Assembly (NCBI GenBank): GCA_051362555.1
Contig: CM120643.1
Span: 11,036,001 to 11,100,000 of the forward strand
From: Lingula anatina
Lineage: Eukaryota; Animalia; Brachiopoda
Direction of reading: 5' to 3'
Length of the DNA stretch: 64,000 nt
Part shown: positions 1 to 34,120 of the stretch, piece by piece
Position numbering within the stretch: position 1 is the stretch's first letter
Layout: the number at the start of each line of letters is the position of its first letter
Notes under the pieces: generated by a model
Database searches by the model: none
Told to the model about the DNA's origin: nothing
The model's input: only the letters and a program-made list of their open reading frames with translations
Made by a program: the position numbers and the translations under genes

Positions 1-62
1 AAAAGCACCATTCCGGCATTAAAGAATAATAAAAACACTCACCACTGTATTCCCGACTCTAG

Positions 63-305
63 TGTTAGAATATGCCTTCGTGTTAATTTTCATTCTCTCA
101 GGGAGAGGCCCAACTTATAGGTACACTTTCATTGTAACTGTCATCCGAAAGCGAACTTTCCCGAGAGACTGAACCAGCATCCGAATAATCGTCAGAAATT
201 TCAAATTCCGAATTGCTAGCGCCAGACGTAAAACGTGTCATTGATTAGTTTCCTTTGTTTTCCGGTGTGTACTCAGCTACCCCCGGAGATACATCAATAA
301 AACGG
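63..305 (+). CDS. Possible signal-peptide exons of the receptor (~63-120 and 277-305); start codon probably upstream of the window
   Basis: Donor at 121, acceptor at 276 and donor at 306 join in phase to give ..YAFVLIFILSGRGPTYS/YPRRYINKT/ECPQ, with a hydrophobic core. There is no in-frame ATG in the window. Confidence 0.45.
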
Positions 306-428
306 GTAATATCATGTAATGTGATTGACTTAGGAGTTAAGTAAGTGTAAATATTGAATATTCAAAATGTTTTCTAATGATCCCAAAAAGTGACCCCCAT
401 GCCTAAAACCTGCACTTTAATATTTCAG

Positions 429-1330
429 AGTGCCCCCAGGTAGGGGAGGTATACCCAGTGCAGAATGGGAACTGGAGTTGCTCGGGTTATAGGGATAACT
501 GGTTCAAGACGAAGTGTACACTGGAGTGCCTGCCTGGCTTTGTGGTCCCTGTGGCAAATGTTACCATGGAAAATGTTACCGTGGAAACGGTTACGGTGAC
601 ATGTGGAATACATTTGAACTGGACTGGTGTATCAGCAACAGCACCACAGTGTCTCCCAGTGCCTGGTAAGAGAGTGAGAGAGAGAGAGAGAGAGAGGGGG
701 GGGAGGGGAGGGAGAGAGAGAAAAAGGGGTAGAGCAGGCAGACAAAAGGACGAAAGACGAGAGCGTGTTAGGGAGGGTGGGGAAAGAGGTACAGCTTGTA
801 ACAATGTAATGAACATAAAATGTTCATGTTACTGAGACAACATTTTTGAAATAAAAATAAGCCAGAATAATGAAATGTTCTGAGAGTAAGAAGTGAAAGT
901 ACAGTGAGGCAAAGAGTCAATTATTTTGTTCTGTAGCATAATTAAAAAATCATTATTAAAACTGTGGAATATCATTTACTAATATTATTACATGTACTGT
1001 ACTAGTAACCTTATAGTGCGTCATTTTCCTTAAACCGCTGTCCCCTCTACAGAAACAACTACACCACAGGCAGCCATAGTACCAGTGACCAGCACTGTGG
1101 AACAAAGCACAACTACGGTTCACAATGTGAATTTATCATTGCCAGTCGTCCTGAGTAATATTACCATGACAACTGGTACAAGTTACACAACTGAAGGTGG
1201 CAGCACTGGTACTAAAGATGGAGGTCACACGGTCCCAGTTTTTCCAATAGTTGGAGGTGAGTAAAGGGGAAGAATATGGTCTTGTGCATTGCATTTCTTC
1301 AAGTGCACCAGCTGAGTTTTATTGATTGAT

Positions 1331-1369
<39 letters not shown>

Positions 1370-4300
1370 TTATTATTTTTTTTTTATTAACAAGATCAAC
1401 TACAGAAGTTATTTGCCTCATGGTCAATGCAGGTGGGTTGAGAATGTTGTTGTTGTTGTTGTTGTTGTTTTTCTTTACTGTATAATGGTGTTTTGAATAA
1501 TGCATTGGCAAGAAGCAGAAGTGAAAAAATGAATTTGTCTGATTTACATGATACTTATTCATGCCTTTACAAGGTTTACTGCAGACCAGGCTGGGTAGAG
1601 GGTGCTAGAGAGATTATGTTTCAGAGAGGAAGATTAACACACAAATACATGCACAAATAAAAGTAAAGCTTTCTTATTTTTTTCATGTGACTGTCTACGC
1701 AATGATTTCATACAGACATACCTGAATATGAGTAAGATGTGTGTACTTATTTATCAATAATGTATTGCAGGTGTGTTAGGATCACTGATAGCCCTGATAG
1801 TCTTGGCAGTCCTAATTTATGTAGTACGGAGGAAATGTTGTTACTCTCCAAATAAGTGCTTCGAAAGGAACTATTCACTTGGTAGGAAAATACTTTTGAT
1901 GAGAAAAACTTATATAGTTTATGCTTTTATTATGTAATTTTTTTACATGTTTATCAGTTATTTTAATTAATTGTTAATTTTTCTTTTCATTGACTGTTGC
2001 CTCATAGAAAATTGCACTGGTACATTTCGCTGTATTTCTTGATAATTTTTAAATGCTTACTTGATACTTACATAATTATATGTGTAGATAATTATTTTTC
2101 ATATCAAGAATAAATCATTTAAATGAATATTTCAGTTATGTGGTACTTCATACAATTTTTCTCATTCAGCTAATTCAGAATCAAGTGATGGCTCAGACAG
2201 TAAATTTGGTAAGTAGTTAAAATAGATTATTTTTAAAGCTTAAATATACATATTACAGGTAGAGTTTTTTAATTAAATAGCTGAGGAGTAGTGACCTATG
2301 AGCCATTTGAATGTTTTGCCGTTATGATACATGTATAATACTTTCAGCACTAGTACCCAATATTTGTGCAAAATTTAACCAAATGGCATTTTCCACTTTT
2401 TTCAAAATAACCATTTCATTTAAAACTTTTTATTTAATCTAAATTCATGTTTGACCTTCATTAAGGTGCTGTGAACATGTGATTATGAATGCTTTTTTTT
2501 TTTTTTTTTTTGCAACATTTGCACTGTTTATAAATAAATCTATATCCAGACAGACGTGTCAGCTCTAAACTGAATCCCACAATGACAATTTAATATATTT
2601 ACCTGTGATTTGATTTCTTCTGACCCCCCTGGGTAAACTTACAATGGGTGGGGTAGACAAAGGGGTGGGGTCTACAAACAAAGGGGCGGGGTCTGCAGAC
2701 CAAGGGGCAGAGTCTGAAGACAAAAGACTATTCTTATTTGTGGACCTCAGACTCTGTAGCGCTTGGCCTGCCATACTTTTTATGGGTGTAAACAATCTTT
2801 CTGGATATGCACCTATGCATTAAGTATATTTGTTCTTATTTGTTATTATATGCACAGTGTATATTTTCCAAACCAGTAAGAGTATCCTTTTTAAGCCACA
2901 GACTGGTCTATTCTGCCATTTTTCTAGGAATGGTGAAGGAATCTGAGTTTTGATTTGAAAAGGCAATAGAGAGGGGATGGGGGGGGGGGGGGGGAGACAG
3001 ACCCTCAAAGATGTCCACTTGTGAAATGCAAAGCACCTCATAATATAAGCCCTCACCAGTCGAACCTGTTTAAATTTCAACTAGTAATGAAAAGCATGCT
3101 CATGCATGCCACAGTTTGCTAGGCACATGCATCTGTGTATTGGTTTTTGTAAAGAAGAAGCTGACACCCACATTTATGTTGTCATCCTGAGTTATTGGAA
3201 GCATAGTCTACTTTTGTGCTGGAAGTAGAGGGCGTGTCAGAGATGAAAAGGTTTCCTCCTTTATGTTTTCAAACAGGGGTACAAAAAAAATCTGGATTTT
3301 GTGTGAAATGTTCAAAACTTGAAAATAAGGGCATCTGCCCCTCGCCCTGAGAGTTTGTTTCTCGTGCACCCAGAAACCCAGGATGACACTTATAAATGTT
3401 TAATGAAGATTATAGGCCAAGTGTATTGTGTTTTTGCATCCACAAGATTGCTGCATGCCTATTCTGAATGTTTTATTTTGACAGATAAAGACGCTAAAGA
3501 GGAATTATTACCCCCTAAGCCAGGTTTGTAAATGCCTTCCCTTAAGTGTTCTGTTTCAGTTTGGACACGTATTTGCATGGTTATTAATTTTGAAAACTTG
3601 GTTTACTGCATCTTTACATTGTTCCCTCTCTCTCTCTCGTTGTTAGTAGGTCATTAAAAGGAACCATAACAGCTGGGTAAATGACAAAAAAGATGATGTT
3701 GTCTCGACATACATATATATTGTTTTCCTTGAAACTTTCTGTCAAAAGGCAAGAATGAAAATAAAACATCCAAAAAACAAGAAATTAGTAGTGGATTTTT
3801 AAAAATTGGTATCATTTTGGTAATGTCTCAATCTTTTCAATGAGCAAATATTATCAAACTTTCAGATACATAATTTTATAATCACAAAATTATATTTCTA
3901 TATAGAATTTGTGGTATTAGAATTATGCACTTGTTTTTACTAATTCCTTGCTTATTCAACATTTAATTTAGTTAGGTTTGAAAAATTATTTGCTGCTGAA
4001 TGTTTCCTTTGGGTGATATCATGATATGCTTGAATTCAGATCAGTATTTGAAAGATAAAAAATTGACAAAGAATGATATATTTGGCTTCCTTCGATGGGA
4101 GTTACAGTAATGTTAATTAAAATGCTTCATGTGTTACCGTATGTAAATTGTAAGACTTCTCATTTGAGATATTTCACATCATTTGTGGCAAGTCCACCTA
4201 CATTGCTCTTTTTTTTTTTTTTTTTTTTGGGGGGAGGGGGGAGGGGGGCTTATAGTAAGAGCATTATTTTAGGAAAGATGTTTTTATTTCATTTATTGTG

Positions 4301-7300
4301 ATTGATAGCCACACTTCAAAAAGAAAAGTTCAATTGTCGTAATTCTATTTTGGGTGCATGGTTTTTCTTCCAGTAGTGGGTTTTCAGGATGTCCTAGTAG
4401 TACATGTATTTGACATTTATGCTTCTTATATTTTGTCCCAGTGCTTTTATTTATTTTTTTCTTATCATTGCCATTTGCCTCGTGTTTAATGTGTAGGGGA
4501 TGGAATGACTCATTCTCCGTCACTGTAACAAGTATAAATATCTATAGTGCTACTGGCATGTGCTTCATTAAACCAGACATCTTTAAATTATTACCAAAGT
4601 TTATGATGATTTGACAAAATGCATAAAATAAATTTCCATAATCAGTGTGATAAGGTGAATATTTATAGATATTTATAGATAATATTTTAGTCTTACATCA
4701 GAGATTCCCCATGCATTTTTATATGATTATTCTTTTCCACCCTCTTTTTATTGCAGGACTGACCAATGATGCCTGTCGTGTAGAAGAAGATGGCACTCCT
4801 CATTCAGTAAAACCAACTTCCCATATAATTAATGTTTACAGCCCAAATGTGACTATCACCTCTGATAAAGTTGACCAGTTTACTGTGCAAAAAGTAGAGG
4901 ACAGTCGTGTGCCATGCGACTCAGAAAGAAATGTACAAACATCAGTTGAGGACAATTGCTGTGTCGATTTTACCTCAGGTGACCTTGACCTATCTGAAAA
5001 GGTTGAATGTGAGGACACAAGTGCTCTTTCAGCTATGACATCTTTACCGTCATTTTCCTTCGAAAAAGGTGAATTGAGTCATATTGAGACCCCACGGAAA
5101 TCCTTAATGTATACTGGAGATGGAGAGGGTGATGGCAATTTCAGGTCTGATTCCACTGATGACTGGTCTTCCCCAACTGATAACAGGACAAGCACAAGAG
5201 ACAAACCACACAAAAAAGAAGTCCCATACAACTTACAATCGCAGTTGTCAGACGATAGCACAAAATCCTCAGAAAACGGAAGCAACAATAACAACAACAA
5301 AAAAGGTGGGATTAATATCAAGAAGGCGTCCAAAGTGAGAGCGAACCAAAAGACTGTGGTGTCAGGGAACGCGAGCCCAGAAGACCATGCGTTTGCCTCT
5401 GGTTACGACTTTGGAGGCATTAACATAGAAGAAGCAGACGATGTGGAGGCAAACCAGGAGCTCCATCTGGTGGGAGATCAGAGCCCAACTGAGGGACATC
5501 CACCAGGGGGCAGTAGTGTCAGGAAGCCTCCTGTTGGTGCAAGTTTATCTACAGTAGGTGAGTGAATGATTGTGATTTCAAATCTTGTTTGAATTGTTTT
5601 AAAAAATGGCCTCATATTTATATTCTTCCATTACCTTCTTCAGCCAGCCAAGGTTTTTATAAGTCACTCATTCTTTTTCTAACTTTTTCCTTCAGTTGTG
5701 CAATGTCCCATTCACCATATGCTTTTGAACATTGAATTATGAATTGATGTGTGTTATGGTCTTGTTTCTCAGACACCAGTACAGCTGCAGAGGGCCAGTC
5801 TGACTCCACTGTCCCCAAGTGTCCTCCTCCTACTGTTGGACCGTACTGTGGAGTAGCAATTCCCACAAGCCAAGTAAAAATTGGTAAGTAAGTGCAGAAA
5901 CAAAGTTGCTGTTAAACTGTTTGACCAGTAGTAGTCTCAGTTTTCTGTGTTTTTTCTTGAAGTGTATTGTGCCTGGAACTATTGTTACAGTAGTAAAATA
6001 AAGGAAATGGCTTAATCACTAAGCAATATCCAGAATTGTAAGTTGACATGCAACAGTAAGGATTTTGTATGGATGAGAAATTTAGCTAAAACTCAGAGAA
6101 GAGAAATAGTATTTAAAAAATGTGATATAGTACCATCATAGATTTACTGTATTTTCAATGGGCATTTCTGTATTCCCTTGTTTTGATTTTTTTATCATCG
6201 TGTTTATGATTTTAAACGAATGGTTTGTCTTCCTATCTAGGCTCAAGCACAAGTCTAGCTATAGTAAAACTGCCAAGTCATTGTAATGATGGCCGCCAAG
6301 AAATTTTCATCTGGTACCACCTGGCTTCAGCAACAGCTCTTTTTGGATCTCAGACCTACACCATCACCAGTGCCAGCCCAAAGGATTCTGGGAAATATCA
6401 CTGGACAGTTTTGCTAAGTGATGGAAGTTTATTTCATGGACTGGTTGAAGTGACAGTCACAGGTGACAGCCTTGACCTTTGACCCAATAAAAAACCCAGC
6501 CTTTGACCCTGGAACTTTCTAAGCTCCACCCACTGACCTTGACCTTTTTAGATCCCACCCACTGACCTTGATCTCACCTATATAACCTTGCTAAACTAAA
6601 TCCAGCAAACTGAGCCTCTTTCAACTATCTCAGGTTTTCTAGATTTGCTCTGTTTACCTTTTCAGCATGTTACTTAAAAAATATTGTTTTGGTAAAAAAA
6701 TTATGATGTTATTCTAAATCCAGTAACCATACACTGGAAACTTTATTTATTTAATTTTATATTTACTTGTTTGTTTGTTTAACATGCTTCAGGAGACCAG
6801 CATTCTGAGGACAACTTAATGCCGTCAAAGACAGCTGATGTCTCCATCCAGCCACTCACTGCCAGTGGAGGACAGAATAGGCTGATAGAAGGTACTGGAA
6901 ACAGCAGTTCATTATCATGTAGAGCCTGAAGTGGTCTAATGCTGGACAAAGGCCTTGGCAAAAATTAGTAACATGGTTTCTGCTACTTGTAGAGTATTGT
7001 ATGTATATCTGAAGCATTCACTTCAAACCTTTCAAATTCTTTATATACTTAAGAAGGTCTGTGTTTTGTGACAAGTTTTGATATTTCCCCTAAAATTTCA
7101 CACATTTCTTAATTGTCAGGACATTGGCCAATATTGCAGCCTAGTTGAAGCATTCAATGCCAAAATAAACAAAAGTATAAAGTTGAAAACCATATTGTTT
7201 ATTTTAGGCTCTTCTGGCAGCCTCCCCCAGCCTGGGCTGACCTTTGACTTCCTGCGTCTTGTCACAAACATGAATCCCCTCCTGGTTCCAGTCAACGGAA

Positions 7301-9359
7301 TCAGGAACAGGACCCATGGTCAGAATTGTGGTCAGCCAGGGGGCAGTACTAGTCAAGGCACAGCTAGTATACACCAAAAAAGTGGTAACTGGGACCTTAG
7401 TTTGCATGAAGGTGATCAGACTAAAGGACGCACAGATGGGAAGGACAAGTCAAGCTCTTATAGTTTGGACGCAGGGACACAAACTGAAGGTTTGGTGCCC
7501 AAGTGGGTCCACAGTGATAACAGTACTGGGTCAGAGTCTGCTGTAGGTGATCACTGCTTTCTACAGCTGGGAGACCCTTATCTCTCCTCTTTGTCGGACT
7601 TTGGCCAATGGTCATTTGCTGACCACTCCAGTGTAGACAGTGGATATGTACAGCTGGCTGCTGGACAGGGCGGATGCAGCACCATGGAGACAAATTTCAG
7701 TAGCATGTGTCCACCATCCTTGGTGACGTTATCCGACAGTTCACAAAGCTCTGTTGTGAGCAGCGACTCTGTGTACAATAGTGGAAGTGAAAACAGCAGT
7801 AGTTATGATAGCAGTCACTATGGAAACAGTCACCTTAGCAATCGTAGCCGTGACAGTGGAACTCAGACTGATTTATACAGTAATAGCCTGCAGCAGGATC
7901 AGACATTCAGAAAAGAGTTGATTAACTGTAGTGAGCACATGGGCAATCACAGTAATAACATTGATAGCAATGGGATAAGTTATATTGGAAATGGGGAAGG
8001 ATTGGCTATGGGTGCAAATGCTATAGAACTTGCAGATTTTCCCAAAGCAGAGGGTAGGATATGCTATTTTATGACACAGTATGATAAGATGTCAGTGTAA
8101 ATGTATAGATATTGTGCACTTAAGTCTTTACTTAGTCATTTTGAACAACTTGGTGATGCATTTAAATTATTATTTAATTTTTCAGATCTTTATTGTTATT
8201 TGTCTGTATCTCAAAAAGTGAAAATTATAGATACAGTATAATTTTTTAGCTGGGAAATCTAACACAAAGTTGAGCTGGAAAAAAGGAGTCTATGCCTAAC
8301 AGTGGCCTGTCCCTCCTTATGATAGGGAATACCTTGCGACACGGCTGTTTCATGGCATTATCAAAATTGATTCAGTGAAAAGAATTTAACAGTGGTTTTA
8401 AAATACAAGTAGTTATCACAGAGCTGACAAGGAAGTTAAAGAATTATAGTTTGTCACTGTTCATTTTCCTTTTCTAAATTGTGTATTTTCTTTTCTCACT
8501 GTCAGATTCCAACAGTTGCACCATGCTCCTCTCAGAGCTGATGGAATGCAGGGAATTCGTGGATGATTTCTGTATACTGATGGACCCAGACAAGAATTGG
8601 GAAGAAATGGCAGCCATTTTGTTCAGCTTGCCTCCACATGTACTGAAGTATATAGAGTGAGTGTCGATATTTGTAGGCAGGGGAGTTTGGAAAAAACCTA
8701 TTTTGGTTGGAAAAGGGTTTTTTTTTTTTTTTTTTTTTCTTTTTTTTTGTATCAAAGTTTGTTCTGGGTTCAAGTTGGGCCTATTAAAACTTAAGAGAAC
8801 AAGTTGACTTTTTTCAGTTAAGACCCCCCCCCCTCTGAAATAATTGGCTTCAGATCTATCAACTGGCTGCATCTAAGTCATATAACAGATGGATGCTTCT
8901 GATTCCATGGGGTTGGGCCTTGAACATTTAAAGATGTGACCTTTTCACATATGGTTTTTCCATTACAGTGTTCCTTCTCTTCATGTGATACTTTTATTTC
9001 TGCACTCCCTTATTAACTAATTTACGGCCCTAGTTCTGGCTAACATGAAAAAAAATCATAAACTGAGGAAAAAAATGATTTGTTTCATTTTCTGAGTCCA
9101 TTTTTTTGTCCCACATTTGACTTGACTACAAGTCTAGGACTTTCTTTGCAGTTTTAAGACGCGTTACTTTGGTTACTGCACCGAGGTGGCATTGGACAAA
9201 GCCATGGCTGAGAACACGGGGTTCAAGGTCAGTCAGCTGGTACTCTGGCTAGTCATACGGGGTCACGGTCAAGCCGTAGAAGTAATCCTTCGCCACCACC
9301 GTGACTGCCACGTGTGCTCCAAGATGGCTGCTGTTCGTAACCAGGAGGTCTATGTGTAA
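429..9359 (+). CDS. Multi-exon type I membrane receptor: Sushi/CCP - Thr-rich stalk - TM - disordered tail with amyloid-like repeats - Ig-like domain - Ser-rich region - death domain (~1020 aa; 5' end uncertain)
   Basis: GT-AG exons that join in frame: 429-665, 1053-1256, 1771-1881, 2170-2208, 3485-3523, 4757-5557, 5773-5883, 6241-6462, 6793-6891, 7208-8053, 8506-8656, 9152-9359 (TAA). Sushi: ECPQ..NGNWSC..TKCTLECLPGF..VTC..NW..APQC. TM: VFPIVGGVLGSLIALIVLAVLIYVV-RRKCC. Death-domain pattern: FVDDFCILMDPDKNWEEMAAILF..TEVALDKAM..FKVSQLVLWLVIRGHGQAVEVIL. Confidence 0.85.
2625..2725. repeat. Short ~21-bp G-rich tandem repeat (ACAAAGGGGYGGGGTCT-like) in a receptor intron
   Basis: 3-4 degenerate copies visible. 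Confidence 0.55.
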
Positions 9360-12300
9360 CAGAGAGGACTCTGATGACAGCTGTGGTTTTATTTCAAGAT
9401 GGCTCTTCTGTGTGTTGAACATATATTTAAACGCCAGTGGTGACATCTGGTGTCAGAGTGAGGTGCAGAGAGACAATCCAAACAGGGGTCATTATTAGAG
9501 GACAAAGCAGTTTTACCGTGAATTTAAATCATGAATGATTTACCGACTTTATGGTGTTGTGATTATAAATGTATGATTGTGATTTGTTTTAATGTAAGAA
9601 CTACATGTACAATGTACCTCTATGCATCTTGTTCTTTATAATTACAGAGGGATCCTGGGAAATCTTACTTAACACAGTGATAACAATCAAGATGGACAAG
9701 ATACTTATTTTCTTACATGTATCTCTTTTTTTTGTTAGTAATGGACACATCTTATGATGTAAGACACATTTGATATGTTATAGCATTTTTTCTGCTAGAT
9801 AGTCTGCATCATGGGCCATTGTTACATGTAGGATGCATCTGATTTACAGTACACATTTGATGTCAAACAAGTTAAAAGACCACATTTTTGAAAGTAGCTC
9901 AAGCAAATTGACAGGATTTTAAACAGATGTTTAAGAGAATTTCCATTATCCGTAGATACTAGGTACTAGTTTATTTTGATTTGGATTGGTAGTTTTTTCT
10001 TGATAAATAATACAGTTGGGCTGCAAAGTTAAAGATACTGCTGGTTTTTCTTAAAGATGTTTTGTAAAGAACACCATTGTAGCTTTGTGTGTGATATGTT
10101 ACTGCTTTTAGTTAAGCATTCATATGGATACATTTGGCATTACAGTTGTTATTTGATATGAAATTATAGGAGAATGGTGGACTGGGAACCATTAGTTGTT
10201 AGATAATACCTTTTTGTACATACCACATTTTTATATGTATTTAATTCTGCTGGCAGAAGATGAAAGTGAAGAAAAGATTGATCTCTGCATCATAGCAGTT
10301 ACCATGTGGGTTGGGGGGAGGAGGTTATATCTTCACAAAGATATGCCTATTTTGATATACTCAGTGATAATAAACTCGGGACCGTAGCCAGAGGGTGGGG
10401 GGGGGGGGGGGGGTGAACGGGAAAAGGTCCAGTTTGGGTAATATTTAATTTAGGAACATGTGTGCACAAAGGTTTCGTGCTTAAAGGTCCACTTTAGGAC
10501 TCGTAGACGATAATTGCTGTATGCTATCATGAGCCTTAATAGATTTGGGAGCACGAATGCCCAAATTAATGACTAGGTCCACGAATTACGTACCCCAAGG
10601 TAAAATTTGTGGACACGAACTCGGTGTCAGAGCGGACCGTGTGTCGTAACAGTGTGCTTTTAATTCTACGTGACTTAAGTTCATAAACTCCTATTCCATT
10701 TATAAGGCCAGACTTTTCAAAAAAAAAAAAAACTTTACAATGGCTGTTTAGGGCCTAAATCTACTTAAGGCATTGAAGTGATTTATGAAGTATTCCAGCG
10801 AAAAGAGGTCAACTTCAGATTGAGAATTGTCGAGACAGCAGTGTGATTGAAATCAGCCCTTAGCAATGTATGAACACATATGCTTCAATGAGGTACCATG
10901 CATAGTTTGCACATGTATATGTGCATAAATGAGAATAATTGACGTTGGATACATGTAATAAATCCACTGTTGAATAATTTGTGGAAGGTGTGGAAATAGA
11001 AGAACCATTAGAGGATATGAATCCACCCTGGCTGAACGTTTGAATATTAATGCTAGTATTAAGTAATAAGAATCATGAAAATGTAAAATAAATCACGGAA
11101 CGTATCATGAGGATGCTTGGTGAAGTTTTACGACGACTGAATTAAAAAAAATAGTGATCTTGGAAATGCATTTCGAAAGCGAGTTTTGAGTAATAGGATA
11201 CGGTGAAATTGATGAAAGGTATCGAAAGAAAGATAAAAATTCCACTGCCTTGCTGACAACACTGGTTAGGATCTAGGTTGAATGAATGATTGGATATGCA
11301 ATTTATAAGCTTTTAATTTTATAATTTTGAATATTCTGCTTTCATTTCCATAATTACTAGTAGCTGCGCAAGACTGAAAAATGCATCAATGTGTTAAGGT
11401 CATTAAAATTGTTCCATTTCTGTCGCCCAATACGCAATTGTCAATTCTTTACTTGTGATGCTGTATTATGTATGTTGGAGAAACGATGCAAGTTTTAAAA
11501 TTGCTTAAATGTCATTGAGAACATGAAATGTTCATATCGTGTGAAACGTTTTTGTGTAGGACTTTTCTACGGTGTATGAATAAAACTTCTCCAGGCAATG
11601 TCTAGGTTGTTTGTATTTTATGAAGTATTCTTGCTGGTGAGTCGGGAAGTAGGAAGTTGCAGGCTCAGAGTTTGTATTGACCGACGTGAATGACAATATA
11701 AAAGAATGAAAAATGAAAAATTATTATACTGGAGCCTTATTATACTGAAACGGATATCACTTTTCAACCTTGTCACAAGGCCTTCAGTCAGGTGAACTGA
11801 TTTAGAGTTGTGAAATAAATCGTGAAGACGAGTTTGTCTTATTAGGGAAATGATCGATATCATAAGGGAGACGCGTTTACAGCTAACCATCAAAACAGCG
11901 GTTATTGCAATTATTCTGGAATCTCAGAAGAATATCACGAAAAGCCAAACTTTTTAGAAAAAAAAAACATGGACATGGACCCTTTGGTAAGTACAGGAAA
12001 ATCGTCGTTTACCCCAGGAGAATTTGTTTTTTTACCAAAAAGAACACTTGCTATCCCTTTAAAACCAGCAGTAAAGATGCAGTTACAGTTAGCCTATTTA
12101 GTGAACTTTACATTGTACGTATAATACTTGTATACATATACTTACCTAGCTAGTCAACTTCTCCATATGGACCTTAAATTCTACTTTTGTAAATGCTTCC
12201 ATGTTCTCATCATGCTCTCATCTATGCTGTCATCAGATTTCCCCGAGCTTTCTTAGAAATAGAATCTTTCACGCCACTGTTATAACTTGAAACGGTCTTT

Positions 12301-13952: not shown

Positions 13953-16900
13953 ATGCTTCTGGTCATTGCCACGTCTGTTCTTCCATGTCTTCTACTGCTG
14001 TGTGGTGGTGTGGCGTCCTACCCGTCAGGGGCGTACATACCGTCCGGCGCGTGCGACTCCATGCTACCCAGCCCAAACGCGGACTCAGGCCACGGAGCAG
14101 CGCAGCAGACCGGGTCCAACCCCTTTTCTTTGGTCCTAGGAGCGTCCAAGTACACCCCCGGCCAGCCGTATAACGGTGAGTAGTTACCTTCCACAGGGAC
14201 CACAGAGAAATCTGTACACTTGATAGTCACGGGTATCTGACTGTTTACATTAGCTGTGCACATTTTTATTCTATGCCCAGCAATGATTTTGACACTTGAA
14301 GAGCGTCAATACCCTTTGGAGCTCTGGTAGAAAATAGTAGGCTAAGTACTAGAACTCTCAGTGAAATGCATTTTCAACAACCTCTTTGTATTTCAAACGA
14401 ATTCAAATAACCTCTTCTCCTATAAACCCAAATTCTCAGCCTCGTCTGAAAAAGACGAGACTTGTCAGTTTGCAATAGTGAAACGATTCTATTACGGCTC
14501 TGTAAGCCGTCATATTTGGGACGATGCAGTGCGATTTCTATGAGCAGTGTGGTGTTATGGGAAACCCCATCGTGCCTTCACTATTTAAATCTTTCGGGCT
14601 TAAAGGGGTAGAGTAGTATCGAAAATTCAGGAAGTGAAACTAGTTGTGACCCGAGCATTAAAGATGAATGAAAAACTTATACAGAGCAGCCAGGATCTCT
14701 TTCGTAATTTTTTTTGTCATATTTTCAGTGATTTTTCGGTAGGTAGGCCTATATACTTTAAATATCGAAGTGTTGGAGGGAAATTCCAGTATTTTCTAGG
14801 TAGTTGTTTTGTTTCTCGCATTTTTACAGGACAGTAGATTTTTGATCTTCGTACGCGTTCTATGTTTGTTTGGAATCGTTGGTAGGTTACAAAATGACGT
14901 AAGATCAAAATGTTGGTCCTCTTCATTTCAGATTAAATTCCAAAATAAGGTAACTGTTGTCTAGCATTTCACCTATATCATGCTTCTTAGAAATCAGACG
15001 CAATATTATATATAAGCAGAGTGATTTATTTTATGCAAAATCGATCACATTTTTGTCTGAAAGTGACCTTTTCACACGGAAATTATCCCTGTAGGATATT
15101 TCTAAGCAAAAAGGAGCAGAACGGAAAAGATAAAATTGTATGACATCCCTAATTTTTAGAAGTTGATGAATTCATCTCTGAGAAAAAAATTCCACATAAC
15201 AATAACAACATCATAAATATTGGTATTATAATAATTAGCTAGCTTTACCCGTTTTTGTTTACCTACGTGGGAAGAAACAACGTGTAACTTGCTTACAAAC
15301 GCATTTTAATGTAAATATTATGTTTTCATTTAACTGTTCATTTCACTTATTTCAATGTCGCATACCGAGTGTGTCTGCGTCTCCACTGGAAGGAAAAAGA
15401 AAGTTATAAGCATTGGCACTTTCTAGAATAAACACAATTAAAAAAGCATCAAACGGCGGGGATCATCAGGACTCCATGACATGACACATTTTTATGCAAA
15501 TAATTCAACCACAAAATTGTTGACTCACCTTGTGCTTTTAAACAGGTTCTTATGCCCGGACATGAACATGTAGTTCTAGATTAAAATTTATTATTGTCAT
15601 TATCACAATATATATTTCTTGTTTAGCTCATTTAGTGCATTAACAGAAGGGTCTTTCCACAAAAACTTAATTTTTATGCAGTGGCCCAGACACAACTTTC
15701 ATGTCCAGTAGCAATAGGCCTACTGTGTTGACCGGCAACCCCCTCCCTGCACCTATGCTATCGAAATTACGTGCCTAAGACCTACACCAGTCTTAGACGA
15801 TCCTTGTCTGAACACAGCGCTTAGTATGCGCACCTTTTTTTTTTTTTTTTTGCTTCGTAATGATGACGGTGTAGATTGGAAGCTGCACAGCTTTTTAATT
15901 CAAATCAAAGCGTAATTTGCTTGTTGAAAAGATAAATGCGTGAATTCCACGGCACAGTTAATTGGTCCCGTTTCGTCTGCACACTGAAGTGCCACGATTT
16001 TTTAAATAAAGAAGCAATGAATAAAGATAATAGCGACCACAGGTCAATTTCTTACCTTTCCGTTTCCAACTTTCAGTTTCTCTAATTGGACCTAGTCACT
16101 ATGAGGGGTTCATGATACAAGCCCGGTCTAACACCACAGGGAGCAGAGTTGGGACGTGGCAGACATCTACTCTGACGGTTCTGAATGAAAACTGCAGCGG
16201 TGCAGAAGGCAAAGCGCTGGTTCACAAGGCGACACTAGAGGGTACAGGGAACATGACTTTCACGTGGACAGCGCCGCCTGCAGGCACCGGATACGTTAAA
16301 TTTTAGTAAGCACACGTAGGGATTATAAATCTCATTTTTTGCAAAAAAAAAATATATATATATAATAATAATAATAAATAAATAAATAATAATTATTATT
16401 ATAATGATCGAAATTACCCTTGATTGCGTTGACGGCACGTCCTGTAAATCGGCAATGCCGTGCTCATCCGTCTAATTATTTAAAGAGAAAAACACATTTC
16501 TCGAAGAGTTTGTTTTTAAATCTCAGCTAGGTGCATCATTTTTTAATATAAATGGCATTTCTGTCAACTCATATTAGACAAAGGAAAATATAAAGAACAG
16601 TTTTGAGTGTTTGATGCGGATGATAGGATTAAAAACAGACAGACAGACATCATAACATCCTTTGATTATTTTCAGTGCAACAGTGGTGCAAGAGAAGGAG
16701 GTGTTCTGGGCGAAGTTCCCAGGGCCGATGTTGGTGGGAGAGGTAGGCCTATGTAGACGATTCTCTTCTAAGAGAGGGATTGAGAGGAGGGAGAGAGACA
16801 ATGTGGAAGAGAGAGAGAGAGAGAGAGAGATAGAGAGAGAGAGAAAGAGATGGGGCGGGGAGAAATAAAGAGATAGAGATACGGTTGGAAAAGAGAGAGA

Positions 16901-18499: not shown

Positions 18500-21489
18500 A
18501 TAGCCATAATCTAAACGTGCGCCGCGCACTTTAGTTGGCAAACCCTTTGGAGTAGACGAACAATTTCCGAATGAGATCAATGAAAAGAGAAAGCTTTTGA
18601 TGCCCCGTTTGAGAGCAGCAAAAATGGGTTGGAAAGAAGGCTGTTTTGGTTGTGGATAAATTATTCATTGACGATCGTGAGTTTATCCCCCCGACATGCA
18701 TCAGAGCACGGCACGTGGAACAAGTACTACTCAGCAGGATGTGATTCATGCCACGGGTCAACAACGCGCTCGCAGCCTGTCAGACCGTACCGAGAGAGGA
18801 AGACGAGGGAGACCTCGCTAGACGAATTTGCAGTACACCCGTCACATGGAACATTGATAGCGCTAACAACTTGAAATGGCAGAAATTATCAGCGTAAACT
18901 GTCAAGGTATGGGGAGTTTTGAGAAGAGAAAAGACGTCTTTCAATATTTACGAAATTTGAAATGTAATATCCTCTGTTTACAGGATACACATTTTATTAT
19001 GAAAAAAAAGCTCAGATAAGGAATGAATGGGGTTACGAAGCCTATTTCAGTTCTTATATTTCAAACGCCCGAGGCGTAGCAATTCTATTACAAAATAACA
19101 TAAATTTTAAATTGCTACAGGAATTCAAGGACGAATCCGGGAATATACTTATTCTTACATTTGATCTTGATGATAAAATAGTAAAAGTTGCAAATATCTA
19201 TGGTCCTAACACTGATAACCCCGCATTCTTTGATCGATGAAATAGACAGTGAATTCCAAATAATCTGTGGAGATTTTAACCTGCTTCTGAATCCAGATAC
19301 TGATTACTATAATTATTCACGGATAAATAACCCAAAGGCAAGATTAAGTGTTTTAAATATGATAAAAGAAAACGGCTGTGTAGACCCACATGGAGAACTA
19401 TATGGCAATGTGTCTAATTTCACTTGGCGAAAAAGAAATCCAGTTAAACAACCCAGGCTGGATTTTTTTCTCACCTCAGATAATTTAGTTCCAAATTTGG
19501 TCTCAGTTAGCACCCTACTTAGTGATAGATCAGATCACTCACCAATTAAACTTCAAGTAAAATTTGACAGTTTAAGCAAGGAAGAGGACTTTGGAAATTT
19601 ATTAATTCCCTTCTATGACATGACCTATGTCGAAAAAATTAATGAAGCCATACGAGATTTTAAAAATGAATATTGCATTCCTATATATAATCTTGAAAAT
19701 ATTGACAACATTCCTGACCAGGAATTGCAGTTTATGGTGAATTATCAGATGTTTCTAGAACTTTTGCTTTTACGTTTAAGAGGAACGACTATTTCGTATG
19801 CATGTTTTAAAAGAAAAAATTACAAGAGGTAGAAAAAGGGCTTATGAAAGAAATAGAACAATTAACAGAAGATTATGAAAATTCTGATGCCCGTCTTCAA
19901 CTAGAATTTGAAAGGAAAAAACAACAGTTAGTTGAGATGAGAAGTGCAAGGTTAAAAGGTAGCATTATTAGATCGCGCGAGAAATGGTTAACTGATGGAG
20001 AAAAACCCAAAAAATATTTTTTCAGACTTGAAAAAAGAAGATTTACAGAAAAAATTATTCCCCGACTTCAGGTTGGTGAAAATGAATATATTACTAAACA
20101 GAATGAAATCTTAAAAGAAACAAAAAAGTTTTACGAAAAATTGTACTCAGAAAATACACAGTATGCTGATATTGACTGGCAAACAAATTAAAAAGATTTT
20201 AATGTACCAAAACTGACTACAGATGAGAGGGAAAGCCTAGAAGGCCCAATAACTAACGTTGAAGCCAAAATATTCCTCACTAAAATGAAAAATGATTTAA
20301 AGTCCAGGTTCGGACGGATTTACTGTGCAATTCTTAAAGTTTTTTTTTTTTTTTTTTTTTGGACGAAAGTAGGGACCTCTGTCATACGATCTTTAAATTA
20401 TGGTCTTACACATGGGCAGCTCTCTGTCACCCAAAGGGAGGGAATCATAACATGCATCCTGAAGGAGGATAGACCAAAACAATTTCTAAAAAAATTGGCG
20501 CCCTATTACACTATTGAATACCGTTTACAAGATTGCCTCAGGTGTCGTACCAAGTAGAATAAAAACGATATTGGATAAATTGATAAGTAAAGAACAGACT
20601 GGTTTCTTAAATATAAAAGGGAGATACATAGGGGAAAATACTCGTTTAATCTACGATCTCATGCAATATACTGAGGAAAACCATATACCTGGAATATTAC
20701 TTCTAATAGATTTTGAGAAAGCATTCGATAGTATATTTTGGAACTTTCTAAATCAAGTTCTTATCTTTTTTAATTTCGGTCTAGACATAATAAATTACAT
20801 TAAAACTTTTTATAAAAATATTACTTCAAGAGTAAATCAAGGAGGTCATTTATCCGAAATGTTTTAACCACAGCGTGGCCTGAAACAAGGTGATCCGATA
20901 TCACCATATTTATTTTTGATATGTTCTGAAATTCTTTCAGTAAGCAGAAAGAATAACCCTCAAATTAAAGGAATACAAATTGGGGAAAATGAATACAAGA
21001 TATTGCAATATGCAGATGACACGTCCATAATCTTAGATGCTTCTGAACAGTCCCTTAACGCCTCCCTACAGGATCTAAGATGGTTTGAAAAAATTTCGGG
21101 TTTAAAAATGAATTATGACAAAACTCAGGTTATTTGGATAGGGAGTAAAAAAAAATTCAAAAGAGAAACTGTGCAATAATTGGACACTAATATGGGGTGC
21201 AACGTCTTTTAAATTATTAGGTATTAAATTCTATGTTGAACTAGATACTATATGTGAAAAGAATTATCGGGAAAAAATTGAAAATACTGAAAGATTACTA
21301 ATTATGGGAAAGACGAATTTTGACCCCCTAGGCAGAATTACAGTAATTAAAAGTCTCATGATATCGAAATTTAACCATCTTTTTATTTCACTGCCTAACT
21401 CATCTAACCAAATAATTAAGGAGCTAAAAAAGTTAATCTTTGGATTTCTTTGGAAAGGTAAGCCGGATAAAGTAAAAAGGGAAATATTA

Positions 21490-21523
<34 letters not shown>

Positions 21524-21899
21524 TGGAAAACTAAATATGATAAATGTAGAAGCTTCAATAATGGCATTAAAGGAGGTAGAAACTATATACCATATACTTT
21601 GGGATTGGGATATTGTACAAAATTTCTTACGCCAAGTAGAAGCATGGTTAATTTCCTGTAATATATATTTAAATTTCAGTAATATACCGTTTATTCTAAT
21701 TGACATTAATGAACGCAATGTATCCAATATAATCATGACTATACACATTAAATTTTTCATATACAAAACAAAATGTCAGAAAGACGCACTGTCACTCAAA
21801 AAAACTTCAACTTTATTTAGAAAATATATACAAAATCTATAAGAAAAAATACACTGTATCTCAAGATGTAGAAAAATTCAATGTTATATGGCAGAAATG
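18500..21899 (+). mobile_element. Decayed L1/Tx1-clade non-LTR retrotransposon (ORF1 C-terminal remnant + frameshifted ORF2 APE-RT)
   Basis: ORF1 remnant FGVDEQFPNEINEKRKLL..VVDKLFID. ORF2 from ATG 18876: IISVNCQG, LCLQDTHF, GDFN, RLDFFL, SDHSPI (APE); IDFEKAFDS, QGDPISPYLF, QYADD (RT). Many frameshifts and an internal deletion near 21560. Confidence 0.93.
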
Positions 21900-22448
21900 C
21901 ACAGTACACTTTTTTCATTCGTTTAATACGGAGTAAGGTAACATCTATACCGGTATCTGGTCTATAATTCAATCATGCTATTAGTCTCTAGTTCAATGTT
22001 TAATCATTTACTAAGACTTTGTAAGTACTGAAAAAAATATTGCCACCCTAAGATTTCTGTTCAACCTATAAGAAATACGGTGTGAACATTTCGGAAATAA
22101 GTCACAATAATTGTACTAGAAAAACATAACCTGCCACATTCTACAAAAGCACTAATATTTTAGAAGTCACCAGGGGCAGACACGTTTTTCCCCATCATAG
22201 TTTTTTTTTAAGATAGTGCTTTCAGTTAAGTATAATATGAACTTAATCAAACAGCAGACATATATCTCAAATGCAGGTAAAAAATTACAATTTCGTAAAG
22301 GACATGACAACGGCTGCTTTCTCAAATTGTCGTTGTTTTCATGACCATTGCTATGCCTTATATACAAATCAAAATAAAAGGAAATTTGATATAATTGTCT
22401 TATAACAGGGTATTTCAAGAAGTCATTTAGCCACACAAAGGGTACTAG

Positions 22449-25400
22449 TTATTTCAATAAGAACAATAAAATAAGTACATCGAGGACGGGAAATACCGAA
22501 TTCATTCGCGACGCAATCGAAGTGGGACGCACAGCCTCTCTAACAAATGTGGGTGGGTCCCTCTGTTCCAATGACTCGAACGTTACAGCGTCTATGTCAC
22601 CAGACTCTGCGTAGAGACTTTTGAATAATACTCCATTTAGTCTGAGAACAAACGCAGGACCAATTCCTTCGCCGTAGAACTCGTCTCCTCCAACGGGGTA
22701 CAGCTTCCAGCGACCAAATGGACCGTAGAACATGCGGAGAAAGTTCTCCTCGTCCTTGTGAATGATTTCGATTTCGTCATACAGCGGCTCCTTAAATTTT
22801 CCTGTGTAACTCCTAAGAAGTCTATCCGCAGTCCCTGGCGTTCCTTTGGTAGGTTTTGTCGAGTTTGGAGGGTCCGCAAAAGGCTCAGGGAAGGAGCAAA
22901 CTGAGGAGCTATTCAACCACGGACGTTCTCCAAGGAAAAGGTCCAAAATAAGCATCCCCAGCGCCTGCTTCTTTAGCCATGAACTAGGCATCGTGTTGAA
23001 GGTGTAATATATGCCAAGCCCTTTGGATGGAATGAGAACCAAATTTGAAGAGAATCCCCATGATAATCCAGTGTGAGTAACCATGGGATAACCTGAAATA
23101 TTGATTAAAAGTTGGTTTTCTGAGAACGGTTGGCGCTTTCTTTCTCTCTCTCTCTCTCTCTTTTTTTTTTTTTTAAACTAAAACTCACAATTTGCTCGTG
23201 GAGGCGATTGCTTTCTTTTAAAATCAAAACATCTTTTGTGATTGACAACCATGCATACAATTATTACCTCGGTAACTGCCAATCCTCCACCCGAATCCAT
23301 AGTGGGAAACATTGAACGTGACTGGGATGATAGGAGTGGAAAGATATTTGTCCAGTGAAGACGGGCAAGCAATATTCGGTCTGTACGTCTCCTCTAACGC
23401 ATTCACCGACACAACCTGCGACTGATCATGAGCTTTGCCCGAGTTGAGGTGAAACAGCAGCCACTTTGCCATATCCACGGAGTTGCTCAAAATGGAACCA
23501 GAGGGAGAATTGCGGGCCCAGGATCTAATAATGAACGGATTAACATTATCGCAATAAGAACTTTCAACCAGATTAAATAAGATGTTGTCGAATTGTCAAT
23601 TTGAAAAGGTGATGACAAAAAGTAGATCTGAATAAAAAGAAAAACAAGATCAAACTATTTGACGTTGAAACGGAAATTCCGAACACAAGCTATCGAAAAC
23701 TATCAATAATAATAATAATAATGATAATAATAATAATAATGATAATAATAATAATTATTATTATTATTATTATCTGATATCAAACTCACTTTAAAAACTC
23801 TAAAGAGCCTATCCTCAATCCTCCGGGCCGTTCATCATCGTAATAGTGGGGAGATGCAATTGACAGTCCGTCTAACTTGGCGGTGGATATAAAAGTGGTG
23901 GTATCCATTCCCAGTGGAGAGAGAATGGTAGCTCTCACCGCCTCTTCCCAGCTCAGGCCAGTAAGTTGCTCCGTGATGAGACCGGCTAGCCCGTACATTT
24001 GATTGTTGTAAAAGTACTCCGCACGCAGCGGGGCTGAACTGTTGAAATACTTAAGCTTCCTGAAAAAAAAAAAGCGGCCGCACTGTTAGTTCGCTATGGT
24101 CAGCTGCTATGACATAGGAAATAATGGGCCTATTGTCTGACAGTCACGACTGAAGGAGGAGAAAGCGGGACAAAATGTAGGCCTACTTTTCGCTTCAGTT
24201 GCCCCCTTAACCTACCAACAATCATGGTAGAAAATTGGGAAAGAGAACCCCCAATCCAACTGTAGATATACAGGATTACTAAAAACGTAAGCAGCTAGTG
24301 ATACCATGATACACTAGTGTAAAGATCTCTGTCCTTTATTGTTACAAATTGAAAATCACAGTCATAGAACTCTATCGTTTCAATATCAAACATCTTCTTT
24401 ACGTCATGGCATCAACGATAGGATAATTTTAGCAGAAACTATTACGGAGAATACGTTGCCGTTGATTAATTAATTTGTTTATTTATTCATTTATTTATTT
24501 ATTTACGGTGCAATTGACTAGTACCTGACATTGCATGGTTCGCCATTACACGAAGGCAAAGATCGTTCAAAGAATTGGACTTCCCTAAGTAGCAATCTGA
24601 TAGCTTCTATTATGTCTGTTATTTGCAACATTAATAAATAGCATTTAGTGACATTTCAGCTTAGGGACAGAGAAAGACAAAACATCCCAAAAGTCTAAAC
24701 TTTTACGCACATGTTTTGGATTTGACAGATAAATCTTCAGTGTTAAATAACTAAATTTCATTGCATTTACACTAGTACATAGTGTCATATAACATATAGC
24801 CTTCCAAAAAAGGGACTGTGCTGCACTCATTACCAACAAGTGTACTGGCAGTTGAGTAGGTAGAGCCAATTGGGCTCTGCCAAAAATGTTTTGTATTTTT
24901 CTTACAAGTAGTCGTACTATATAACGATTTAACATAATTCATATTTATTTATATTTGCATTCCTATTGTACATTTTCATCTACCCATGTAGATGCATACG
25001 ATACAATGAATAAAGTATATAAAGTATATAACAGCTGACGTTATAATTAATAGATTGTGATTTTGGGGAGAAGATCGCTAAAAAGTTTCTCAAGGTTTCT
25101 GCGCACCCACGAACACCATTTAAACGCCAATGTAACGACACCATTGAGTACTTCAGAACCTTAGCAGCAATTTTATTTAAAAGCCTGACTTCGCAATATA
25201 TCGTTATAAAGGCAAATTAATCCCTTTTTCATTGAAACATTGTAACAGGGGCCCATAATTCCTTGACATAAACTTTGAAACCGGTTTCGGGGCAACCTCA
25301 ATTTGACGGCAAGGGGTTAAAGCCCATAATCCTATTGTCACCTATGCCATTTTCGTGATAAGATCTTGTTTAGGGATGTAGTTATGTCCCATGCCTATTG

Positions 25401-28400: not shown

Positions 28401-30204
28401 TGCCACAAGTTTTCAACTGGTTGAGTCCTTACTAAGACAAGCTGCTGCGGTGTGAATCGCAATATGTACATTCAGGTTATACGTGGCAGATTTATGACAA
28501 AAGAGACCTTCACAATATACTTCAAAGGAGTTTTTCTGGCGTCTGTGCCTCATCAAAAGTACACAGTTACAGTGACTAGAACATTGTCTGCAAATAGTGA
28601 GGCAGTGAAGGCTGCAAGGTGCCATTGTTTTTCAGTATTAAGAATGACAGTATCTGTTTTTTTATTTATTTTTTTTATTATTCATTTTTAATGGGAGGGA
28701 GACTCACTTTGTTCTTTCTATGCCCATTCAGTTACAGTAAGGGTTGGTGGCAATATATGGTAAATCTGTCATGCCTGTATGTAGAATTTCTCTTGCTCAA
28801 ATTTCTACATTTATTGAGTGCATTATGAAGTTTCCTGACTGATTAATGAGGTTACTTGTAGAAATATCTTGCCTACACACATTTTGTGATATTTTTACTA
28901 CTTTATACATATAATTATTAACATTTCATCAGTGGTGTGTGAAAGGTACTTGGTATTTGCATTTTAGAACTGTAGATCTGTGTACCAGCAGGGTTATATT
29001 GCAGTAATATCTGTTTATGTTTCTAAAAATAAGCTTCATGTTTGATAATTAATTGGTTTGAAATAAATAAATAAATAACCCAAACAAAATCAATTCATTT
29101 TATATTTCACATAATCTGTTTTTATTATTTCTTCTAAGCATTTAATCATAACATCTCCCATCATTATAGTGTTATTGTGTAATAACATTGAAAGGTTCCA
29201 AAATTTTATTAACAGGTTGATGCTAACGTATTACAAATAAATATAAGCATCAAAGCATATTTCCTTCCTCAAATATATCACACGTACCACTGGCATAATA
29301 CCGGTAGAGATACAGGTAAAGATGACAGCCTTGATAACTGGGTTCACAGCTCTGTTAGTGCAGCACGGTTAATTAGTGTCAGATTGTTATCCGATAAAGT
29401 TTGCTACTAGTACCTGGGAACAAAAGGTCTGGCACTTGCCAATCAAGTTGATAAAATCACAAACCCTGTAGAAAATAGAGCATACCTGCCCAACATTGAT
29501 TTGTTCAGATTCTTGACTAAGGGGTGCGTTACTGGTGACAAGGGCCAAGACTTGAACTTAGGGGGTTTGGTATGTCACTGGACATTCCTCTCGATTTCTG
29601 CCCAAATCTAATAAAGCCTGAGTTGATTGCCGTAAATATCAAATTTGTGAACAGAATGAGGAATAATGACAGTAATGATAAAATGCTTGAAAGTACCTGT
29701 CACCTTCGCCACAGTAACTATATGGGCTGTGCCCCCCCCCCCCCCCCCCACACACAACCACAGGCGACACCTTGCGGAGCAAGCGCGCGTAATCCAGGGT
29801 GCAACTGAAAATAACCTTGTCGCGCGACCCGTGTATGGATTTGATGACCTTCGGTGTGGGTTTTTCTACTTTCTGGCCATCTTTTACTTCTGTGAAAATC
29901 ACTATGGAAACTAAGTTTTGAAGGGGTGCATGTTCTTAATTTGGATAAATAGTATAAAATATGGAAATCTTCATCAGTATTTTGAATTTTTTAACCCTTA
30001 GTCATGTTAAATATCTAACGTACCTTAACCTATTAATAATATAGCTTTTAAAACAGAAGTTAATTCGTTGACGAAAATAAATTCACTGGAATTCAGAACA
30101 ATTATAAATTAAAGTGAAAGTCATTTTAGCAGGTTCACAACAGTGGATACCGATGCTGCTCAGTCCCTCGAGATCTCCCTCTCCCCCCTGCCCCCTCCCT
30201 CACC

Positions 30205-30260
<56 letters not shown>

Positions 30261-34063: not shown

Positions 34064-34120
<57 letters not shown>

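Follow-up and report, generated by a model that had tools for sequence, protein, structure and literature searches.

A locus of the brachiopod Lingula anatina, lying in a 64,000-nucleotide window (the whole stretch of DNA that was analysed), was proposed in an earlier note to encode a receptor in which a Sushi (CCP) module, a mucin-like stalk and a membrane helix (TM) are followed by a tail of about 800 residues, with an intracellular Ig domain and a death-domain-like end. This proposal raises the questions of whether these parts belong to one expressed gene, whether the Sushi module is the entire ectodomain, and whether the C-terminus is a death domain.

A spliced and expressed gene

The gene model runs along the + strand, as do all features described below, from an exact start at 429 to an exact stop at 9359, and it comprises 12 exons and 1,022 codons with no internal stop. 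All introns are GT-AG, ten of them in phase 1 and one in phase 2. Evidence for splicing and expression came from four RNA runs, of each of which about 6-25% was read. Joint read rows agreed to the base with 9 of the 11 modelled introns, and for a tenth (6463-6792) there was a loose end of 6 reads carrying the sequence of the following exon. Among the variants listed (40 of 369), 22 of 37 coding read variants were synonymous, as compared to about 22% expected, and none created a stop. The gene is real, spliced and expressed. A neighbouring gene is 98-100% identical in its match to a protein recorded under the name Lingula anatina, which makes this brachiopod the almost certain source and bears out the lophotrochozoan origin guessed earlier.

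Two exons consist of only 13 codons each: a small cytoplasmic exon with joint rows on both sides (2170..2208), and a cassette exon that is alternatively skipped (3485..3523; included according to 8 and 4 reads, skipped in 14 reads from two of the four runs). The stop codon is followed by a long 3' untranslated region (9360..11500), which extends to at least 11500 according to same-strand read depth. AATAAA hexamers are present in this region.

Every junction from the stalk to the last exon was read-supported, and the TM, the Ig and the C-terminal domain therefore lie in one open frame. The sole junction of the 11 that gave no read row in the four runs was 665->1053, which connects the Sushi exon to the stalk exon, so that the one-gene layout was established directly from the stalk onward and not at this step. 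This gap would be expected if the Sushi exon came from another transcript or remained unspliced to the stalk exon, making the Sushi-to-death layout a prediction artefact. We consider this very unlikely, because the gap is explained by the loss of read rows at a repeat adjoining the donor. In addition, the donor (GTAAGA) is in phase 1, the frame fits, and the only pyrimidine-rich downstream acceptor, the single one with at least 70% pyrimidines between 666 and 1060, is that of the stalk exon. Same-strand reads also cover the Sushi exon at a depth similar to that of the stalk exon. Sushi, stalk, TM, long tail and Ig are thus supported as parts of one protein.

From the Sushi module to the cytoplasmic tail

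The Sushi/CCP exon (429..665) is internal and encodes the domain itself at residues 2-75, with six Cys and a Trp. Pfam model PF00084 matched it with 22.9 bits, above the cut-off of 20.7 (E 1.2e-4), and its AF2 model (pLDDT 62.9) was built exclusively of strands. The best Foldseek matches for this model were mostly CCP-containing chains, with probabilities up to 0.99 but E values of at least 0.11, and the matches were generic, being spread over C1r/s, MASP, selectin and PAPP-A. A low-confidence insertion in the domain bears two N-glycan sequons. The next exon (1053..1256) encodes the Thr/Ser-rich, mucin-like stalk (35% Ser+Thr) and the start of the membrane helix, and is joined to the following one by 6 reads from two of the four runs. 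The remainder of the helix, basic stop-transfer residues and a juxtamembrane Cys pair are encoded by 1771..1881, whose joint 1881->2170 was seen in 22 reads and in all 4 runs. Residues 146-167 form the only hydropathy peak of the model (maximum 2.92) and are followed by RRK, and sequon density is 0.041 outside versus 0.014 inside. A single-pass, type I topology is predicted, with the signal peptide located outside the window. The Sushi, stalk and TM assignments of the earlier note were all upheld, as were its long tail and intracellular Ig.

The tail is 855 residues in length. Its part A (4757..5557; joint rows) is acidic, Ser-rich and predicted to be disordered; it has no Pfam match, and a FoldIndex-type score was negative over residues ~200-480. 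A linker exon (5773..5883; joined to its neighbours by 12 and 17 reads) presumably also carries the first Ig strand, which we placed there by the I-set pattern. The I-set-like Ig domain itself (6241..6462) was recognized by the Atlas (0.94; recognition 2843; 10 of the 10 best named matches in the Ig clan) and by a PDB sequence match to FcgammaRI (E 0.009), while in Pfam only Ig_3 appeared, below cut-off (E 0.22). The Ig signature, a C-strand Trp and D-x-G-x-Y, is present as W539, D563 and Y567. We take Ile522 and Trp569, placed by this pattern, to occupy the usual positions of the B-F disulfide cysteines, leaving an Ig without the cysteine pair. Cytoplasmic Ig domains often do not have this disulfide, and its absence here fits a reducing compartment. 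It is unusual for a single-pass receptor to carry an Ig on its cytoplasmic side.

Among the variants listed, 4 of 4 in the Ig exon were synonymous; in the linker exon that follows (6793..6891; reached from the Ig exon by the loose end of 6 reads and joined to the next exon by 16 reads), 5 of 7 changed a residue. Part B of the tail (7208..8053; joints, no Pfam match) is Ser/Gly-rich and, by composition, largely disordered. A motif search found in it two LC8-type sites with predicted binding, D-x-G-T-Q-T-E at residues 709-715 (7468..7488) and D-x-G-T-Q-T-D at residues 837-843 (7852..7872). According to the accessible text of PMC6607443, LC8 sites have a TQT anchor in a disordered region, with a polar residue at -4 and D/E/P at +2 favoured and a small residue at -3 disfavoured. 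Both motifs have the favoured Asp at -4 and Glu or Asp at +2, along with the disfavoured small residue at -3. Two TQT anchors were reached in 207 of 20,000 shuffles.

The two ends of the protein

The putative death domain is divided between two exons. The first (8506..8656; joints of 17 and 20 reads) would contribute helices 1-3, on the basis of motif spacing and low-confidence helices, and the last coding exon (9152..9359) would contribute helices 4-6, an H-H-x-D-C-x-x-C sequence and the stop; the joint 8656->9152 was seen in 4 of 4 runs. Death domains share a core spacing of W-x-x-h-A in helix 2, V-x-x-L-x-x-x-L in helix 5 and hydrophobic residues in helix 6. A generic spacing pattern, written after the sequence had been seen, matched once, at residues 935-1000 across the read-verified junction, and was reached in 1 of 20,000 shuffles. 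The region is hydrophobic and ordered. In a low-confidence structure model (pLDDT 49.6, pTM 0.25) the exon parts were helical, with breaks where death-domain loops fall, and the intron residues were helical too. The helical moment was not above that of shuffles (259 of 2,000). The region lacks two hallmarks of death domains, if not universal ones: the Leu-Gly that follows helix 2 and the Trp of helix 4. Pfam Death (PF00531), CARD and DED matched neither exon nor the intron-containing genomic span, a PDB sequence search gave no death domain (weak best matches, ankyrin repeats, E 0.09), no match at E <= 0.001 was found among 1.84 billion representatives, and the Atlas features for the last exon yielded no assignment at 0.9. 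These searches were weak because the queries were half-domains or still contained the intron. We consider that the region is probably a divergent death domain; the earlier claim is supported at the level of motif spacing, and the Pfam, PDB and library searches gave no match for it.

It is conceivable that the C-terminal region is instead another small helical module, perhaps metal-binding through H-H-x-D-C-x-x-C; the protein would then serve in adhesion or as a scaffold receptor, its tail bound to LC8. The blank profile and sequence searches, the two missing hallmarks and the six Cys in the domain would agree with this. We nevertheless regard it as rather improbable, because the spacing of helices 2, 3, 5 and 6 matches across the splice junction and is rarely reached by shuffles, though the pattern was fitted afterwards, because its far C-terminal position in a single-pass receptor and length of about 95 residues suit a death domain, and because Pfam models miss divergent invertebrate immune domains, in the case of TIR and NACHT according to the part of PMC8662601 consulted.

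At the other end, an 8-read loose end before 426 showed that the Sushi exon is spliced to a further upstream exon, and its letters, looked for in the window, were not found there. The ectodomain in the window is incomplete, and the view of the Sushi module as the whole ectodomain did not hold. The last 30 letters of the upstream exon end in P-L-Y-C, with one Cys preceded by Tyr, and the codon four residues before this Cys ends in GT, giving a 6-fold likelihood for Cys. Since the Grindelwald module ends in C-x3-C (PMC8024323, accessible part), these letters are compatible with the end of its C2 module, with a likelihood ratio of about 6. The odds of a Grindelwald-type TNFR module as the head, with a TNF trimer as its ligand, appear about even, and the Sushi may then be a spacer rather than the sensor. 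No TNFR cysteine-rich domain (CRD) was found by Pfam within the window; a Grindelwald-type head would remove the contrast to classical TNFR death receptors drawn earlier.

The ectodomain might alternatively consist of Sushi only, one or an array, sensing a complement fragment or cytokine and signalling through the death domain. One Sushi is certain from the Pfam and fold matches, the upstream Cys precedes Sushi Cys1 by 8 residues, which is a normal Sushi-Sushi linker length, and the upstream intron is in phase 1, like the introns around the Sushi exon. Spiralians also possess C3, factor B and multi-CCP receptors (PMC9835746, accessible part). However, P-L-Y-C differs from the P-x-C with which this gene's own Sushi closes, the upstream end favours another Cys four residues earlier, and the fold matches are generic, as described above. 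In complement regulators, several modules in tandem are required and the tails are short, in contrast to the 855-residue tail here. We therefore hold a Sushi-only ectodomain to be unlikely, and the complement-sensing role suggested earlier gained no support beyond one Sushi module. Just as doubtful is the fuller version of a receptor without a TNFR module, in which a Sushi head for complement-like or cytokine ligands would be combined with tails pre-paired by LC8 and a MALT1-like platform of Ig and death domain; if true, complement-type recognition in brachiopods would lead directly to NF-kB or caspase-8 signalling.

A candidate death-domain receptor

The reading that we favour, with moderate confidence, is that of a single-pass death-domain receptor clustered through its head by a multimeric ligand. 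The cysteine-bearing head upstream of the window would bind the ligand, with Sushi and stalk keeping it off the membrane, and the dimeric hub protein LC8 may bind both TQT motifs and so pair the tails. Ig domains of MALT1 are adaptor-docking or dimerising modules, and the disulfide-less Ig could be one as well. Once clustered, the likely death domains would seed adaptor assembly by recruiting FADD, CRADD or an adaptor of the MyD88/IRAK/EDARADD type, and NF-kB or DED caspases would be activated as a result. Brachiopods possess FADD, CRADD and DED caspases (PMC11463336, accessible part), which makes the death-fold output proposed in the earlier note plausible. Its suggestion of necroptosis-like signalling found no support, the search for a RHIM-like core in the protein having given nothing except one weak LQLG.

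No homologs were found by sequence search, and we found neither a named family nor a publication in which this architecture is described, in agreement with the earlier note. TNFR death receptors (p75NTR/PITA type, Fas, TNFR1 and EDAR) and Grindelwald-type receptors are alike in their type I single-pass topology, stalk and C-terminal death-domain-like module, but differ from the present protein in its Sushi next to the stalk, the length of its tail, its cytoplasmic Ig, its TQT motifs and the lack of a CRD inside the window. Whereas many TNF receptor superfamily members have TRAF-binding tail motifs, no TRAF6, PxQxT or pLxIS motif was found in this tail, and its two TRAF2-type matches are at chance level (reached in 6,642 of 20,000 shuffles). 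PITA-type receptors with CRD and death domain occur in Brachiopoda (10.1101/2021.12.26.474206), a death domain is present in a Grindelwald homolog of a coral, and annelids and bivalves have expanded sets of such homologs (10.1101/2024.07.27.603686); the word 'Sushi' occurs 0 times in the accessible parts of these two sources, on which all three statements rest.

The present protein likewise shares single-pass topology and a C-terminal death-domain-like end with UNC5. ZU5/UPA, characteristic of the UNC5 tail, had no Pfam match in the 10 of 12 exons scanned, the other two being those of 13 codons. The UNC5 netrin receptors are single-pass proteins with a non-TNFR ectodomain and a C-terminal death domain; here, in contrast, the window holds no extracellular Ig or TSP1, the Ig is intracellular, and most of the tail is predicted to be disordered. 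The soluble paracaspase MALT1 also has a death domain and cytoplasmic Ig in the same polypeptide, in the order DD-Ig-Ig-caspase, whereas here a single Ig lies about 320 residues before the death-like domain of a membrane protein without a caspase domain. IL-15Ralpha, SUSD3, SUSD6, CD46 and CR1 have in common with it a Sushi, a Ser/Thr-rich stalk and one membrane helix, but have short tails without folded signalling domains, and no sequence matches to them were found; CD46 and CR1 have several tandem CCP modules, compared with one Sushi in the window.

Marine invertebrates commonly show domain shuffling of this type. Compared by description only, the amphioxus TNFR-caspase hybrid, in which receptor ectodomain and cell-death module are coupled directly (PMC2575513, accessible part), reflects similar shuffling, with a caspase as its output in place of a death-like domain. 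Given the likely death domain, the gene product would represent a type of immune or cell-death receptor that has not been described. Outside mammals, little is known of the receptors that act upstream of FADD, CRADD and DED caspases (PMC11463336, accessible part), and the present protein, expressed in a brachiopod and likely to have a death domain, is a concrete candidate for this position. If its head is of the Grindelwald type, the gene connects death-domain signalling in lophotrochozoans with single-CRD TNF receptors; a head of Sushi only would make it a new receptor class. The tandem LC8 motifs suggest a possible pre-assembly route for such receptors.

Gene structure, transcription and coding constraint

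The receptor gene has exactly the limits that the earlier note had given it, from 429 to 9359 on the forward strand. The model comprises 12 exons and 1,022 codons with no internal stops. Its introns are all GT-AG; the first ten are in phase 1, the final one in phase 2. For RNA support, reads from four runs bearing the same species label were aligned to window positions 1-11500, using approximately 6-25% of each run, and 127-506 reads were placed per run. The proposed splicing was borne out for the greater part: junction-spanning reads, 4 to 22 per junction, agreed to the base with 9 of 11 introns, and the intron after the Ig exon was seen in six reads whose ends left the window match with the letters of the next exon. 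The junction joining the Sushi exon to the stalk (665 to 1053) was absent from the junctions listed, which excluded those at a repeat beside the donor; a further 52 entries of loose read ends lay outside the listing. A tenth junction represented skipping of the 39-nt exon 3485-3523. Three stranded runs placed the origin of the RNA in a forward-strand transcript, and read depth extended to 11500, forming a long 3' UTR of the receptor gene.

In run X7, 385 of the 506 reads placed over 1-11500 were just 90-95% alike to the window, and despite this divergence 7 of the 10 junctions were shared. These reads come from a divergent population or cryptic species that keeps the receptor gene structure. 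A short intronic repeat at 3830-3915 was read on both strands, with many read ends leaving the match in all four runs, and is probably a dispersed element.

Coding variation was counted in the best-supported 40 of 369 variants, excluding three non-coding ones. The remaining 37 included 22 synonymous changes, 15 residue changes and no stops, as compared to a synonymous expectation of about 22% for random changes. Within this same set, all four variants in the Ig exon were synonymous, and five of seven in the linker exon after it altered a residue.

Ectodomain, tail and C-terminal region

The exon at 429-665 encodes a Sushi domain (Pfam PF00084, 22.9 bits against a cut-off of 20.7). Its single-sequence model was all-beta (pLDDT 62.9), and the top Foldseek matches were chains of C1r, E-selectin, MASP, C1s and PAPP-A, with probability at most 0.99 and E at least 0.11; a sequence search of the PDB with this domain returned no match. 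A short internal duplication at 557-600 (forward strand) gives rise to an extra loop bearing two N-glycan sequons, which was the lowest-confidence part of the fold model. A stalk of 66 residues, 35% of them Ser or Thr, follows the Sushi domain, and then comes the sole hydrophobic helix of the model (aa 146-167), with RRK and a Cys pair behind it. Sequon density before the helix was three times that after it. Type I topology is suggested by this enrichment and by the single helix with RRK behind it.

The ectodomain as seen in the window is incomplete, because in one run eight reads extend past 429 on the upstream side, into 30 letters that are absent from the window. Read in frame, these encode ten residues including P-L-Y-C, whose Cys lies eight residues ahead of the first Sushi cysteine. 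The codon preceding the Pro has GT as its last two letters, an ending six times likelier for Cys than for a residue drawn at random from the receptor gene. In the portions available of the respective sources, the Grindelwald CRD is described as terminating in C-x3-C (PMC8024323), and Grindelwald homologs as expanded in annelids and bivalves and as carrying a death domain in a coral (10.1101/2024.07.27.603686). A head that might end as a Grindelwald-type CRD is a lead drawn from 30 letters rather than a finding; they would fit a second Sushi or other cysteine module equally.

The 855-residue tail, mainly Ser, Gly and acidic residues, was predicted to be disordered for the most part, with order at about aa 500-590 and in the last 120 residues. 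The earlier of these two ordered stretches is an Ig domain, scored 0.94 (recognition 2843) by Atlas, a feature-based protein annotation, with all ten best named matches in the Ig clan. It matched Fc receptors in the PDB (E 0.009), and the Pfam match to Ig_3 was below cut-off (E 0.22). Set against the usual Ig pattern, it retains the C-strand Trp and D-x-G-x-Y, with Ile and Trp at the usual disulfide-cysteine positions; the absence of these cysteines would suit a cytoplasmic location. Two copies of D-x-G-T-Q-T-[DE] lie between the Ig domain and the C-terminus. Two TQT anchors were reached in 207 of 20,000 shuffles and the fuller pattern, fitted afterwards, in none of 20,000. According to the accessible part of PMC6607443, an LC8 anchor consists of TQT with a polar residue at -4, D/E/P at +2 and a large residue at -3; the candidate motifs have the first two of these flanking features and not the third. 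A motif scan of the tail found no TRAF6, PxQxT or pLxIS motifs and TRAF2-type matches no more often than chance, and a RHIM scan of the receptor yielded nothing beyond one weak LQLG.

The death domain is the weakest link of the receptor layout. Pfam, PDB death domains and 1.84 billion representatives gave no match to the C-terminal queries, a blank that carries a handicap because these were single exons (half-domains) or a genomic span including the intron (165 codons). For the last exon, Atlas returned no feature at 0.9. A generic death-domain spacing, written down after viewing the sequence, matched once, at aa 935-1000, across a junction verified by 20 reads; it was attained in 1 of 20,000 shuffles, a figure that overstates the evidence because of that order of events. 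Two features typical of death domains were absent, a Leu-Gly following helix 2 and a Trp within helix 4, and the helical moment was not above that of shuffles. A low-confidence model placed helices in both exon parts, and in the intron part too. The region starts with D-P-x-K-N-W, which we take to resemble EDARADD, IRAK and MALT1-type domains. On balance, a death fold is quite probable for this region. Immediately after it, at 9294-9320 (forward strand), H-H-x-D-C-x-x-C could be a metal-binding site.

Proposed signalling, alternatives and novelty

We favour, with moderate assurance, a death-domain receptor, about half of the weight of this reading going to a Grindelwald-type head with a TNF ligand. 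The upstream head, kept away from the membrane by Sushi and stalk, would be the part that binds a multimeric ligand; LC8 may pair the long tails, and the Ig domain may serve for adaptor docking or for dimerisation. Once clustered, the death domains would engage FADD, CRADD or an adaptor of the MyD88/IRAK type, switching on NF-kB or a DED caspase. FADD, CRADD and DED caspases are present in brachiopods, according to the part of PMC11463336 available. Such action would be like that of TNFR-type death receptors and UNC5, and a cytoplasmic Ig domain with a death domain, here putative, is common to MALT1 and this receptor. By its features it falls outside UNC5, MALT1 and the complement regulators; it may belong to the TNFR family.

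A C-terminal domain of a different fold would account for the blank profile, PDB and representative searches and for the two missing hallmarks, but it is unlikely in view of the death-domain spacing across a read-verified junction. That the Sushi exon is not joined to the rest, as the lack of spanning reads at 665 to 1053 would allow, is very improbable; this junction is likely real, because the donor is GTAAGA, the phases agree and the stalk acceptor is the sole pyrimidine-rich one in the interval. The innate-immune receptor interpretation of the earlier note is supported in part: the death-domain receptor is the favoured reading, and a sensor with Sushi only, coupled to the death domain, is rather improbable. 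Among the features it described, gene, splicing, Sushi, stalk, membrane helix and Ig domain stood, while the death domain came down to motif spacing and the ectodomain proved incomplete.

The protein was not found in protein collections. The claim of an undescribed architecture agreed with literature searches of listings and abstract openings, in which no Sushi-TM-death receptor appeared; nor did one in the portions available of PMC2575513, the PITA preprint, PMC11874512, the TNF-TNFR preprint, PMC11463336, PMC8195603, PMC9835746, PMC9334734, PMC8260672 and PMC6208332. Phrases for an intracellular Ig domain were absent from the listed text of the best 25 of 76 architecture-search papers. However, shuffled receptor-death hybrids are already known from amphioxus (PMC2575513, in part), so the layout is new as a variation on them.

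Neighbouring genes and elements

Just downstream of the receptor, at 13960-16300 (forward strand), lies a gene whose product starts with a signal-like stretch and carries a Reeler domain (PF02014, E 3e-11). Two tandem multi-exon beta-lactamase-family genes (PF00144, with a weak DUF3471 match as well), about 95% alike, occupy 22452-30560 and 35441-39821 on the reverse strand; the first of them matches a protein that its source labels as Lingula anatina LOC106179194, with 98-100% identity in four exon blocks and 96.6% in the remaining one of the five. On this match, the DNA of the window comes from that brachiopod or a very near relative. Frames at 50936-51385 resemble the reverse complement of a histone H4-like sequence; the forward frame had no Pfam match, and the segment is possibly a histone pseudogene. 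A decayed LINE at 18900-21900 (forward strand) retains endonuclease and reverse transcriptase pieces (RVT_1, E 2e-12) in several frames, with partial copies near 33870-34570.
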